Numbered from the stretch's first letter, positions 29,590 through 43,555 are shown. The stretch: 64,000 nt of DNA from Candidatus Latescibacterota bacterium (GCA_965208125.1 OZ242320.1:4960001-5024000); one strand, 5' to 3'. Translations and numbers: made by a program. The notes: generated by a model from the letters alone, not told the origin.

Positions 29590-30483
29590 ATGGTTATTCG
29601 GATTTCAAACCTGACAAAAATATATGGTCGCGGCGCAGTTCCCGCCCTGGACGATGTCACATTGACCATTCCTCACGGAACATTTGGCCTGCTGGGACCC
29701 AATGGGGCGGGTAAAACAACGCTGATTAAAATTTTATCGACTCAAATGGACGCATCGAGCGGCAACGTGACTATGGATGAGTTCGACCTGGTAAAAGACC
29801 GCACCGAAATTCGCCGGCGTCTGGGATATTTGCCCCAGCATTTTGGAACCTATCCACAACTGACGGCCTGGGAATTTCTCGATTATATGGCTGTTTTGGG
29901 CGGCATGCACAATAGAACAGCGCGTCTAAATCGCGTAGAGCAAGCTTTAAATGAAGTCGGATTGTACGAAGCGCGCAATCGGCGTTCGGGCACATTTTCA
30001 GGTGGCATGATGCGCCGCCTTGGCATTGCACAGACCATTCTGACCGATCCAGAGTTTCTCATTGTCGATGAACCCACCGTGGGGCTTGACCCGGAAGAAC
30101 GCATCCGGTTTCGAGGTATTTTGGGACGCTTGAGTAGCGATCGCGCAATTTTGATCTCCACGCATATTGTGGGCGATATTTCGAGTACCTGCGAAGATCT
30201 CGCGGTCCTGGATACCGGACGGCTGATCTTTCGCGGTTCTCCCGGAGAACTCATTTCAAAAGCCGATGGCAAAACGTGGGAAGTACAGGTTGATGACGCT
30301 GGCTTTGAAATGCTGTCGCGGGTGTTTCGCGTAGTCACGGTAAATGTTGAAGGCGATCAGATGCGTTTGCGTATGGTGGGCGATGGCGAGCCTCCCGCTG
30401 ATGCCGAAGCAGTCGCGCCCAATCTCGAAGATGCCTATGTCTATTTTGTCGGAGGCGATACCACAGGCGAAATTGCTGCGTAA
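29590..30483 (+). CDS. ABC transporter ATP-binding protein (ABC-2/drug-exporter type)
   Basis: GLLGPNGAGKTT, FSGGMMRR, VDEPTVGLDP, STHIVGD, PNLEDAY. Confidence 0.95.
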   Translation: MVIRISNLTKIYGRGAVPALDDVTLTIPHGTFGLLGPNGAGKTTLIKILSTQMDASSGNVTMDEFDLVKDRTEIRRRLGYLPQHFGTYPQLTAWEFLDYMAVLGGMHNRTARLNRVEQALNEVGLYEARNRRSGTFSGGMMRRLGIAQTILTDPEFLIVDEPTVGLDPEERIRFRGILGRLSSDRAILISTHIVGDISSTCEDLAVLDTGRLIFRGSPGELISKADGKTWEVQVDDAGFEMLSRVFRVVTVNVEGDQMRLRMVGDGEPPADAEAVAPNLEDAYVYFVGGDTTGEIAA

Positions 30484-30495
30484 AGGATTAATACT

Positions 30496-41100: not shown

Positions 41101-42855
41101 TTGCCTCTGGCACTCATATTTGGCGGCGATTACGAAATTTGGCCGCCCTTTGCGATTGTGGTAATCGGAGGGCTGGCGGTTTCAACAGTTTCCACTCTCG
41201 TATTTATTCCCGTGGTGTACATGGGAATTGATCAGACCAAAGCCTGGCTTACGGATATTGGCTGGTTCGGGATCGTATTGGGAACCGCAGCAGCCGCGGG
41301 ATTGACGTATTGGGTTGACGATTATTACCAGAGTTTGTTCTGGACCTGTCTTTTGGCATTGCCAGCCTGGATGTTGTGTATGGGCGTGATCTGGATAGTG
41401 CAACGCATTTATCGCGCGCGTATGGCTTCTCTTGCTGAGATTGGCAATATTGAACATCTCGAAATTCGCAATCTGACCAAAATTTACGGTGCGCCGGGGC
41501 GATTTAAGCACGAATGGGATCGCTTTAAGCGGCGTCATCAGCGCCTTTTAGAGCGCGGGCAGGTATTGATAGATAAAAAGGCGATTAAGGACAGTTTGTG
41601 GTGGAAGTTACCACTTCTGGCACTTCTGATCTATTTGGAAACCTATTTTGAACAGGGAGCCTGGATATTTTTGGCGGGGCTTGCTATATGGGGCCTCGTG
41701 CATCACCTCGTGCTATGCGCGGCAGCTTTGCGCGATTTTCAGATTGAGAACAGATGGATATCACAAATCGCCCGATTGATTTTGCCGCTGGTCTTTATCG
41801 CCTTTATCCATTGGCGTTTGGAACTTCTGTCTTTGACCATCGCCACTACTGCGATTTACTTACTCTATCGCATCATCGGATTTTTGGCAAATCGCGTTGC
41901 ACGAGGTCGCATCGATCCCGAACATATATCGGGCAAATTAGGCCCTGTTAAAAGCATCGTGTACCGCGGTGCTGCAGCCGTTCCCCTGATTGGTGTTCCG
42001 CGCCCACAATTCCAGGCTCTCGGAGGTGTAAGTCTCGATATTCCGCGCGGCATGTTTGGGCTTTTGGGACCCAATGGCGCGGGCAAAACCACGCTGATGC
42101 GAATTGTCTGTCGGGTGTTGTCGTCAAATTACGGGTCGGTACTCGCCAATGGCAAAATACCGCTTACACATCGGAATATGCAGGGGGTGATTGGATATTT
42201 GCCGCAGCACTTTGGCCTGTATCTGCACATGTCTGCGTATAATTATCTGGAGTATCGCGCGCTTTTAGAGGGATTTAAGGATGGGGTAGCGCGGCGCAAG
42301 CGCGTTCAGGAATGTCTGGAGCAGGTCAATCTGTGGGATAGGCGAGACGATCTGATTGGGTCGTTCTCCGGCGGCATGAAACAGCGCGTGGGCATTGCAC
42401 AAACCCTGTTGCACTTGCCGCAGATTATCGTAGTGGATGAGCCGACAGCAGGATTGGATCCGCTCGAGCGGATTCGGTTCAGAAATTTGCTGGCGCGATT
42501 TAGCCAGGAAAAAATCATTATTTTTTCTACGCATATTGTCGAAGATATTGCGGGCAGTTGTAACCGATTGGCTGTACTGAATCACGGTAAGGTGCTCTAC
42601 ACGGGAACCCCGATTGAAATGCGCGATTTGGCGCGCGATAGGGTGTGGGAGGCTCTGCTGCCAGATCCGCGTTTTGAAGCGCTGGAACGCGACCTGGATA
42701 TGATTACACATGTGCGCGTGCCCGATGGGATTCGGGTGCGATTTCTCGCTACTGATCCCATCCCAGAAGCGCGTGCTGTTGCGCCCACCCTCGAAGATGC
42801 GTACCTTTATCTTTTGCGACATGGCGATGAATACAAACAGGCTAACATGGCGTGA
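38131..42855 (+). CDS. AcrB-family RND permease fused to a C-terminal ABC ATPase (1574 aa)
   Basis: Complete RND (GMLMDNGIVVMENI, GIAVNNGIVLID, RVRPVLMTS), then extra TM helices and an NBD (GLLGPNGAGKTT, FSGGMKQR, VDEPTAGLDP, STHIVED, PTLEDAY), all in one frame with no internal stop. Confidence 0.92.
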   Translation: MTLAGIAVRRPVTTAMFFIGLAILGAISLDRLPVQIFPELVRPEVFVALTQQGYSPEQVERNLVMPVEREVGKLEGIEAYESFSRQNSGGVRISYAPNTDMKFALLQLESRITRLQPLLPERTRVNVQRFDASDLSSSVMQIHVLGEGDINWLREFAEEKIRPELEAVDGVVNAQVLGGQRTAIEIIVDPLMLQAHQLSMSDVRNRINAFNTRRQYLGRVYDGDQAYAVSIQGQFTDLVQIRRVVIKPELPLHLGDIAKIRYGLQERTDLQRINGKAAVGIRIQKDDEANLIELAGELEDTIERINGDLAYENIQLVISQNLAEIMNEALNFLKRAAVVGGLLGLFVLFLFLRNLRFVAVLLLAIPCSLLLTFNLMYMWDLSLNVLSMCGLALAVGMLMDNGIVVMENIFKHFEQGKSPKEAAKAGTDEVARAVVAATATTITIFIPVVFIQSDFQDILREFALSIAFPLLASLLVALTLVPALASKTLSLASRPPTGTGVLIEMYTVCLKAGLRHRISVSLGIVGALVITLIISFFFMLQQDIRREESRFTVYISMPEGTTIEALDAVVGEIESAVRDLKGVDRFTTSISETQASINVELLPLSERPDLISVDLIKENLEESFEDVQNAVVSYEAIARTGRGGGGGRGGGGGGGIRGTRQATGGFNLEGGAPSEMAVIRGYDFTVLQMLADDLVYRLEELEEIDPNSVRADAERGASEVHVLPDEEVMFDRRLQVRQVLNAVSDANPRGARSNISFLTPEGTEIPIDVRNVEDPEEEGEGIAGLRQTPILGSGGTYIPLVEVSHVRRDQGRSMILRTDQSRRVIVSYNFAEEILQSQPLLEASRAYVQDVVSEMVLPEGYSIEMIEAEEETIYYWMMGIAAVLIYMILASLFESLSAPLIILCTWPAAIIGSCWALILSGTGLTSQEAPMALLGLIVLSGIAVNNGIVLIDAIETLRRRGFRRERAVLTASRSRVRPVLMTSATTILGMLPLALIFGGDYEIWPPFAIVVIGGLAVSTVSTLVFIPVVYMGIDQTKAWLTDIGWFGIVLGTAAAAGLTYWVDDYYQSLFWTCLLALPAWMLCMGVIWIVQRIYRARMASLAEIGNIEHLEIRNLTKIYGAPGRFKHEWDRFKRRHQRLLERGQVLIDKKAIKDSLWWKLPLLALLIYLETYFEQGAWIFLAGLAIWGLVHHLVLCAAALRDFQIENRWISQIARLILPLVFIAFIHWRLELLSLTIATTAIYLLYRIIGFLANRVARGRIDPEHISGKLGPVKSIVYRGAAAVPLIGVPRPQFQALGGVSLDIPRGMFGLLGPNGAGKTTLMRIVCRVLSSNYGSVLANGKIPLTHRNMQGVIGYLPQHFGLYLHMSAYNYLEYRALLEGFKDGVARRKRVQECLEQVNLWDRRDDLIGSFSGGMKQRVGIAQTLLHLPQIIVVDEPTAGLDPLERIRFRNLLARFSQEKIIIFSTHIVEDIAGSCNRLAVLNHGKVLYTGTPIEMRDLARDRVWEALLPDPRFEALERDLDMITHVRVPDGIRVRFLATDPIPEARAVAPTLEDAYLYLLRHGDEYKQANMA

Positions 42856-43555
42856 GTTGCTTTTCTTTGTCGGCAAAATGCACAGCCTGAGCATGAAAAT
42901 CGTGTTTCACCGCAAAATGATTTTCATGTTTGGCGGGATTGTTGCGTATTACGCAATTTTGTACGCGATTGCAATCTGGCGTCCGGGTGAAGGGCTTTCA
43001 GTCGAACAAGCCCTCCATGTATTGGTCGAAGTACCGGGCACGGTGCTTGCGATTTACCTGACGATGGATCTGGTGTCGGGGGAGAGGGATAAGGATACGC
43101 TTGAAATTCTGTTCAGCACGGCGATCAGCCACTACGCGACGTGGGCCGTGAGAATTGTGTCAATCAGTGCTGCGCTATTTGCCACGCTGATGGCAATGAG
43201 TACGATTTCCTACTATTTTTTTGCGGAGTTTCCCTATATCCTGGGGGGATTGAATGCCTGTATTCCCGCCTTTTTTATGGTGGGAGCCACATTTTTGTTT
43301 TCTGTTTTGTTCCGCAGTGGCAATGCGGCTGGCATGCTCGCCGTTGGGCTTTTGATTGCGATTTTGCTTTCTACCGAGATATTTGAGGATACATCGTATT
43401 ACCTTTTTCTCAAGCCATTTGATCCACCTTCAGATTTAGATACCAGCCTGTGGGTAAATCGCGTGGTCTTAAACCGCGCTGGCATTGCTATTCTGGGTAT
43501 CTTGTTCATTTTTCTGGCTCTGAGACGAATGATAGAGCGCGAAAAGCTGCTGTGA
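42821..43555 (+). CDS. ABC-2 type permease
   Basis: About 6 TM helices with the GERDKDTLEILFS ABC-2 motif; overlaps the upstream stop. Start 42821 or 42827. Confidence 0.8.
   Translation: MAMNTNRLTWRELLFFVGKMHSLSMKIVFHRKMIFMFGGIVAYYAILYAIAIWRPGEGLSVEQALHVLVEVPGTVLAIYLTMDLVSGERDKDTLEILFSTAISHYATWAVRIVSISAALFATLMAMSTISYYFFAEFPYILGGLNACIPAFFMVGATFLFSVLFRSGNAAGMLAVGLLIAILLSTEIFEDTSYYLFLKPFDPPSDLDTSLWVNRVVLNRAGIAILGILFIFLALRRMIEREKLL

Follow-up and report, generated by a model that had tools for sequence, protein, structure and literature searches.

RND (resistance-nodulation-division) pumps, which are driven by protons and capture substrate from the periplasm, and ABC (ATP-binding cassette) exporters, which are driven by ATP and take it from the inner leaflet or the cytoplasm, are taught as two alternative ways of powering tripartite efflux. 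Can both be built into one machine? The question is raised by a locus of a sponge-associated Candidatus Latescibacterota bacterium that lies in a 64,000-nucleotide stretch (GCA_965208125.1 OZ242320.1:4960001-5024000), the whole of which is called the window here. Six open reading frames (ORFs) on the plus strand, at window positions 29590-43555, are packed as a single operon, and the fifth encodes an RND permease fused to an ABC ATPase:

29590-30483, plus strand: g1, 297 aa, free ABC ATPase (nucleotide-binding domain 1, NBD1), DrrA/GldA-like, with a C-terminal regulatory domain
30496-33987, plus strand: g2, 1163 aa, ABC-2-type permease with an M1 fold, Golvesin_C and a Gly/Arg-rich tail
33999-35072, plus strand: g3, 357 aa, RND-type periplasmic adaptor (membrane fusion protein, MFP), a lipoprotein
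35069-38134, plus strand: g4, 1021 aa, RND permease 1 (RND1), full length, 12 transmembrane (TM) helices
38131-42855, plus strand: g5, 1574 aa, GTG start, RND permease 2 (RND2) fused to NBD2
42821-43555, plus strand: g6, 244 aa, small polytopic membrane protein, probably an ABC-2-type permease

A preliminary description, made from the sequence alone, had listed the same six-gene content; it is correct, since the Pfam and NCBIfam assignments of the six products bear it out.

A 1574-codon frame of this kind could be an artefact, in which an assembly error or frameshift joined two neighbouring genes. Residues 1040-1574 of g5 were used as the query in a search for further fusions, and all of the best 120 matches listed carry both PF00873 and PF00005, 111 of them in proteins of 1455-1646 aa. 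The named sources of the best matches are Latescibacterota, Gemmatimonadota, Acidobacteriota, KSB1, Calditrichota and Bacteroidota. An alignment of 19 fusions drawn from several phyla runs over their full length at a mean column identity of 58%, and an intact NBD2 follows RND2 in 57 loci. Positions 40800-42400 were also compared with Logan contigs of four public runs, which stem from related strains and are for the most part labelled as sponge metagenomes. Substitutions were seen, but no insertions or deletions and no difference in length; one contig bridges the RND-to-linker junction (40990-41625), the contigs being short and no single piece spanning all 1601 nt. Contigs of two RNA libraries (X15 and X16) cover parts of the same interval, which hints only weakly at expression and does not prove transcription; the parts that X16 leaves uncovered carry no meaning. 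The connector matches in 84 genomes of the phylum are open frames without stops, save for one partial match with a single TAG (G012). The artefact reading, which we regard as having next to no chance of being right, is refuted by this conservation. The in-frame RND-ABC fusion claimed in the preliminary description thus stands, and we have virtually no doubt that g5 is a real gene and that the cassette is conserved. Current database names for the fusion are only "efflux RND transporter permease" or "ATP-binding cassette domain-containing protein".

The anatomy of the join was read from the sequence, an AlphaFold2 (AF2) model of residues 1001-1574 (mean pLDDT 78) and an alignment of 46 sequences (A5), which together divide g5 into five parts:

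38131-41250, plus strand: RND2, aa 1-1040; a Gly-rich insertion specific to the family lies at aa ~641-672
41251-41433, plus strand: TM13 and TM14, aa ~1041-1101, helices in the AF2 model
41455-41496, plus strand: displaced first strand of NBD2 with the A-loop IRNLTKIYG, a strand in the AF2 model (model residues 109-119)
41497-42000, plus strand: insertion of ~170 aa within the NBD, a cytoplasmic helix and four membrane helices (aa ~1149-1257)
42001-42855, plus strand: rest of NBD2, from Walker A to the C-terminal regulatory domain (ABC_tran 1299-1440)

Within the displaced A-loop strand K1117 and Y1119 are invariant. The four-helix insertion begins three residues past Tyr1119, and the remainder of NBD2 resumes only at residue ~1290; the counterpart strand of g1, ISNLTKIYG, passes straight into the next strand. 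With TM12 followed by two TM helices, the NBD strand and four further TM helices, the NBD is therefore returned to the cytoplasm in the AF2 model. RND2 and NBD2 had been described as fused in frame; the frame holds, but the join runs through about six extra membrane helices, four of them inside the NBD, and is not a simple linker.

When the 250-residue connector was searched with phmmer against 1.84 billion representatives, 45 proteins were recovered, all of them full-length fusions or fragments. Three candidates for free-standing linker-NBD proteins were rejected, as P0125 starts with V and P0123 and P0135 start mid-RND, while P0149 (526 aa, Met start) may be either a split form or a partial gene call. 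That the six connector helices are a fused ABC-2 permease was likewise rejected (hhalign against g6, probability 0.3%).

Conservation of the whole cassette was examined by tblastn of the window proteins against 80 loci on one-genome-per-species contigs. The fusion is present in 60 of the 80, and among the fusion loci with enough flank the other components were found as follows:

RND1: 52 of 53 loci
MFP: 52 of 53 loci
g2 membrane domain: 49 of 50 loci
g2 middle domain: 47 of 50 loci
NBD1: 48 of 50 loci, both misses at the locus edge
g6: 52 of 55 loci

The cassette order recurs in Latescibacterota, Bacteroidota, Calditrichota, Gemmatimonadota and Krumholzibacteria. Neighbourhood conservation, which had been proposed as a check, accordingly gives co-occurrence of the ABC and RND genes in a fixed order across the 60 fusion loci. 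In the window's own genome the cassette is single-copy.

No OEP/TolC gene was found in the operon or in the 64-kb window, whereas a dedicated 1.5-kb outer-membrane factor (OMF) gene of the OEP/TolC family lies between g2 and the MFP gene in 50 of 53 loci and is 38-72% identical across phyla. The loci without it are L001 and L002, the closest relatives of the window (97% and 93% identical), and L051. Six OEP genes occur elsewhere in the window's genome. Among fourteen regions of the window's phylum that were inspected, eight hold six-gene cassettes without an OMF that resemble the window (41-90% identical; families f1 and f2 and one genus of f4), and six hold seven-gene cassettes with an OMF, whose RND2 shows only 25-35% identity and which look like the Bacteroidota type. 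Because the phylum is split in this way, the missing TolC is an old subtype trait and not a feature of the system as a whole: the statement that there is no TolC was true of the window operon and does not extend beyond its subtype.

Several loci depart from these patterns. One genus whose cassette is of the OMF-less six-gene type has an OEP-like gene directly downstream of g6 (L097:159-869 and L103:197-907, minus strand). This gene is unrelated, with 24% identity to the dedicated OMF, and may represent independent re-acquisition of an outer-membrane channel. L051, from a metagenome-assembled genome, is rearranged in the order MFP, NBD1, RND1, g2-like, RND2, NBD2, with the RND2 and NBD2 matches in different frames; matches to the OMF and g6 were not found at this locus. 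At L035 (Marivirga tractuosa ac6), g2 is split into 595 + 506 aa and RND1 into 485 + 558 aa (2446-5776 and 8506-11677) without any N, which may reflect decay of the cassette in this strain or sequencing errors in the record. Three genomes of the window's own genus (G082, with locus L101, G091 and G085) have an operon that opens with g2 right after FdhD. Their g1 orthologue is intact, 82-83% identical and 0.4-1.4 Mb away; in G082 it lies (L105:4253-5146) after a gene for an 805-aa MacB_PCD/FtsX permease and before a heparinase-like gene.

A connector profile matches 84 of 168 genomes of the window's phylum and 34 of the 52 high-quality ones, with family counts of 28/30 (f1), 19/22 (f2), 22/76 (f4) and 13/13 (f10). 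An even sample of Bacteroidota gave matches in 4 of 401 genomes, which may be an underestimate because just six first-look candidates were scored per genome. Similar loci had been suspected in Bacteroidota; they exist there, cultured, non-pathogenic holders being Draconibacterium mangrovi, Marivirga, Maribellus and Portibacter, but by these counts the system is not mainly one of that phylum.

The two transporters might nevertheless be only co-expressed, as separate machines serving the same pathway or stress, with the fusion fixing their stoichiometry or co-localisation. Fusions of pathway partners are common, g1 is able to leave the operon in some genomes, and the cassette tolerates loss of the OMF gene. 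On the other hand, several phyla retain the fusion with its odd linker, at a constant length, no clear free-standing linker plus NBD was found (with P0149 as the ambiguous case), and a family-specific connector of six helices exceeds the needs of a tether. Co-expression without coupling is less likely because this odd connector is strictly conserved, and we consider it rather improbable; a physical complex of the ABC and RND parts is, in our judgement, likely.

The RND parts of the cassette were assigned as follows. The g3 product matches HlyD_D23 (8e-26) in Pfam and RND_mfp in NCBIfam (190.6 bits; cut-off 94.9) and carries the lipobox IVAC with Cys23. ACR_tran matches g4 over residues 5-1013 of 1021 (8e-231) and g5 with 5e-180. 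For RND_permease_2 the two permeases score 621 bits (g4) and 489 bits (g5) against a subfamily cut-off of 1250, so RND1 and RND2 belong to the RND superfamily and not to that subfamily. They are adjacent paralogues, 30% identical, and the best solved relative of RND1 is MdtB (9lyq, E 6e-93). The Gly-rich insertion comprises 15-22 residues in all six RND2 rows aligned (the window and five loci) and is absent from the two RND1 rows aligned (the window and L005) and from AcrB, MdtB and MdtC. It aligns at AcrB residues ~669-676, the loop where the cleft opens into the access pocket.

On the ABC side, g1 matches ABC_tran (4.6e-31) and scores 192.8 bits for the drrA subfamily (cut-off 312) and 180.5 bits for GldA (cut-off 402.6), both under cut-off, as is the score of NBD2 for GldA (168.5 bits). 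None of the tested products reaches the curated NCBIfam cut-off for the GldA, DrrA or NodI equivalogs. NBD2 matches ABC_tran over g5 residues 1299-1440 (2.7e-25), and its Foldseek matches include TM_1403 (4yer) and NosF of NosDFY. The two NBDs are paralogues with 45% identity, each with Walker A, Q-loop, FSGGM, Walker B-Glu and H-loop. All five motifs are intact in NBD2 at 57 of 57 loci, where K1319, Q1359, S1413-G1415, D1436-E1437 and H1468 are invariant, and in NBD1 at 38 of 38 loci (a Q-loop regular expression matches 37 of the 38). Judged by these motifs, both ATP sites are canonical across the family, and the retention of Walker A, FSGGM, Walker B and H-loop reported for the window extends to the other loci.

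The membrane subunits are more divergent. Residues 1-298 of g2 comprise an N-terminal interfacial helix and seven TM-like helices, and its Pfam matches to Peptidase_M1 and ABC2_membrane_5 are weak; Golvesin_C matches at aa 986-1108 (2.9e-15). In the AF2 model (pLDDT 75.8, pTM 0.69) the interfacial helix and seven membrane-length helices are followed by a beta-sandwich, a helical domain, a second beta-sandwich, Golvesin_C and a disordered Gly/Arg-rich tail. The seventh TM helix therefore places the 860-aa domain outside the cytoplasm, in the periplasm of the modelled protein. An M1-aminopeptidase fold without the zinc site spans aa ~300-840, followed by a beta-sandwich. Foldseek aligns the periplasmic part with M1 aminopeptidases over ~680 columns at 11-12% identity, the top match being IRAP (4p8q, E 6e-19), with ERAP1/2 and APN also found, and a Protein Atlas search with residues 290-960 gave solely M1-like and Golvesin leads. 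The HExxH zinc motif is present in 0 of 52 g2 homologues. On the model and these homologues, the domain is a conserved pseudo-peptidase with a probable role in binding and not in cleavage. Gly/Arg-rich runs of GGRGG type occur in g2 at aa ~691-739 (32566-32712) and 1121-1163 (33856-33984) and in RND2 at aa ~641-672 (40051-40146); in the window they far exceed the length found in most homologues, and the model has them disordered (pLDDT <50).

The ORF of g6 extends over 42710-43555. Its start was set at the ATG at 42821, giving a 35-nt overlap with g5, because in the homologue alignment only that start yields the ~20 residues that homologues have before a "YNLKIIF"-type motif. From its sequence, including a weak profile match to the g2 transmembrane domain (TMD; E 0.0022), g6 is probably an ABC-2-type permease. 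Each operon would then hold two NBD and two ABC-2-like TMD paralogues, the full set that had been attributed to the one in the window. MacB_PCD and FtsX gave no Pfam match in any of the six proteins.

How might these parts work together? Our tentative answer, held with rather less than even confidence, is that the operon encodes a single envelope export machine that physically joins two transporter classes in a two-step relay from ABC to RND. By analogy with MdtB2C, RND1 and RND2 would form a mixed trimer with one RND2, which the lipoprotein MFP would dock to an outer-membrane channel, encoded by the cassette in most lineages and presumably borrowed from elsewhere in the six-gene subtype. NBD2, carried by RND2 on six extra membrane helices, would pair with its free paralogue NBD1, and the membrane subunits g2 and g6 would complete a heterodimeric type-V-like ABC exporter beside the RND trimer. 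This ATP-driven module would take up an amphipathic substrate in the cytoplasm or the inner leaflet and bring it to the periplasmic face, where the dead M1-peptidase and Golvesin_C domains of g2 might hold it. From there the RND pump, driven by protons, would pick it up and export it by way of the MFP and OMF. As a guess, the substrate would be a lipid, lipopeptide or peptide. Two-step cooperation of separate inner-membrane and RND pumps is described in PMC4338810; the proposed relay would be a hard-wired form of such cooperation.

Several observations weigh against this relay. RND1 and RND2 of the window and of eight other loci (18 sequences) were aligned with AcrB, MdtB and MdtC of E. coli K-12, and the AcrB-type residues Asp408 and Lys940 are both replaced by Asn in both RNDs throughout, so that proton coupling is assumed from kinship. 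The position of Asn941 holds Asp or Asn in RND1 and Asn in RND2; where AcrB, MdtB and MdtC have an Asp-Asp / Lys relay, the cassette RNDs have Asp-Asn / Asn-(Asp/Asn). All 18 sequences retain residues equivalent to Asp407, Arg971 and Thr978. The same substitutions could be taken as a mark of lost proton coupling, an interpretation rejected by a control within the same genome: among its 13 other stand-alone RND genes, 7 are D-N / N-N, 3 D-P / N-N, 2 D-D / N-D and 1 is CusA-like. The D-N / N-N signature is ordinary for the lineage and nothing special to ABC-linked pumps, since 7 of the 13 share it, and the alignment suggests that the RND halves bear no sign of lost proton coupling. The motifs noted in the preliminary description (TM4 D-N, TM10 N-D/N and RxRP) are indeed kept, but the D-N / N-D/N signature is not diagnostic.

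Other difficulties concern the remaining components. The window's subtype has no OMF gene, and the closest OEP in its genome is only 22% identical to the cassette OMF. The ABC-2 label of g2 and g6 rests, in the window, on sub-threshold Pfam matches (g2, 16.9 bits, cut-off 25; g6, ABC2_membrane_3, 17.7 bits, cut-off 31.6), and among homologues only the L005 orthologue of g2 clears a cut-off (ABC2_membrane_2, 29.6 bits, cut-off 27.2). A complex prediction for the g2 TMD (residues 1-290) with g6 gave 0.22 and 0.30 against a mark of 0.32 and carries no weight either way. NBD1 may serve another transporter, because the relocated g1 of G082 adjoins a MacB/FtsX-type permease; its persistence, intact, after leaving the operon in three genomes is counted in favour of the relay, as far as sequence can tell. 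Substrate exchange between ABC and RND, and the g1/NBD2 and g2/g6 heterodimers, are steps that we infer from sequence. Lastly, the large periplasmic domain fits mechanotransmission at least equally well.

In a mechanotransmission or gating scheme the ABC module would move nothing across the inner membrane; ATP would instead drive a conformational change which, by way of the four helices beside the A-loop and the g2 pseudo-peptidase, loads the RND pump with a substrate from the periplasm or outer leaflet, or else switches the pump on and off. MacB, LolCDE, FtsEX and NosDFY all spend ATP on periplasmic work. The 860-aa periplasmic domain of g2, a peptide-binding fold with no catalytic site, would suit such a role, as would the appearance of NosF among the best structural relatives of the NBD. 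The insertion of four helices three residues after Tyr1119 would offer a direct path from nucleotide state to membrane, and the linker helices are unrelated to the g6 permease. Set against this, the NBDs and TMD-like subunits resemble type V (DrrA/GldA/ABC-2) and not type VII, with no MacB_PCD or FtsX domain in the six proteins, and both ATP sites are fully canonical, like those of real transporters. Gating is the main rival of the relay, though on balance we hold it to be somewhat unlikely. Slightly more doubtful still is a machine that runs on both ATP and the proton gradient, in which the A-loop helices and TM13-14 pass the state of the NBD into the transmembrane domain of RND2.

The operon is closely packed, with gaps of 12 nt at g1/g2 and 11 nt at g2/g3 and overlaps of 4 nt each at g3/g4 and g4/g5, and is bordered by two hairpins:

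29483-29510, plus strand: terminator-like hairpin at the 5' border, 12-bp stem with 8 GC pairs, then a T-run; it closes the upstream FdhD gene
43589-43637, plus strand: terminator-like hairpin followed by U8 at the 3' border (hairpin 43589-43629, dG -24.2 kcal/mol, z -2.45)

The junctions and hairpins agree with the single operon proposed earlier, with gaps of at most 12 nt or overlaps and a terminator at either end. No RNA family was found by Rfam in window positions 28000-45000. The best sigma-70-like match of the region, TTGGCA-16-TATACT (10/12; 29561-29588), ends 2 nt 5' of the g1 ATG; it is a consensus match that, if used, would give a leaderless transcript. Upstream lies a conserved housekeeping row at 19660-23829 (LptA/LptD_N-like, an LptB-like ABC ATPase, a MOSC-domain protein and sigma-54, RpoN), and just upstream of the FdhD gene, at 24982-27711, is encoded a protein of 909 aa that combines four lamin-tail (LTD) domains with an FlgD_ig-like domain at its C-terminus. 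The operon's neighbours (LptA-like, LptB-like, RpoN, LTD-repeat protein, FdhD, TPR, MerR-like and LeuRS) offer no functional clue. Cumulative GC skew has its maximum at ~42000-46000, where gene orientation turns from plus to minus; the peak could be a mere strand switch of genes or a replication landmark.

By sequence comparison, the parts are from known superfamilies, and no equivalog cut-off is reached. MdtABC-TolC of E. coli is a tripartite RND pump with a B2C heterotrimer. The cassette resembles it in having two adjacent RND paralogue genes after the MFP gene and, in most lineages, an OMF partner; unlike the cassette, MdtBC has no ABC parts, nor the Gly-rich insertion and 530-aa C-terminal extension of RND2. 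With the type-V (ABC-2) systems DrrAB, GldAFG and NosDFY the cassette shares the NBD family, permeases that are separate small polytopic proteins and, as with NosD or GldG, a periplasmic accessory domain, but it differs from them in that one NBD is part of an RND protein and is interrupted by four membrane helices, and in that one permease bears a dead M1-peptidase fold. MacAB-TolC also combines an ABC ATPase, an MFP and an OMF across the envelope (the OMF in most cassette lineages) and gives a central place to a periplasmic domain of the permease; MacB, however, is a type-VII FtsX/MacB_PCD protein, whereas the cassette has neither domain and has an RND-type MFP and RND permeases. Export of the mycobacterial lipid PDIM needs MmpL7 (RND) and DrrABC (ABC-2). 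Compared here by description, the likeness is that an RND transporter and a DrrA-type ABC exporter serve one export route; in mycobacteria, MmpL7 and DrrABC are separate proteins without an MFP/OMF duct. The periplasmic part of g2 shares the M1 fold of IRAP, ERAP1/2 and APN, and differs from M1 aminopeptidases in lacking HExxH and in being anchored to an ABC-2 permease. The preliminary description knew of no experimental account of such a system, and a literature search, which did not cover subscription journals, found no description of an RND-ABC fusion; none is described in the RND passages of PMC6281302.

The window itself adds the OMF-less six-gene subtype, a control of RND motifs within one genome, confirmation of the M1 fold, the Gly-rich insertion of RND2 and the relocation of g1 with its persistence. 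Taken with its relatives, it presents a natural, widely conserved covalent RND-ABC hybrid whose NBD is split by membrane helices, and because the hybrid is present in cultured Bacteroidota it is open to experiment. The system lets one ask how two-step efflux and energy coupling are coordinated, how an RND heterotrimer accommodates one odd subunit, and what role a dead M1 peptidase plays on a transporter. If the state of the NBD is indeed passed into RND2, ATP turnover would gate or synchronise the rotation of a proton-driven RND trimer while the ABC-2 half supplies substrate from the inner leaflet, a mode of coupling that would be new to both superfamilies and would let substrate travel from the cytoplasmic side to the exterior with no free intermediate in the periplasm.

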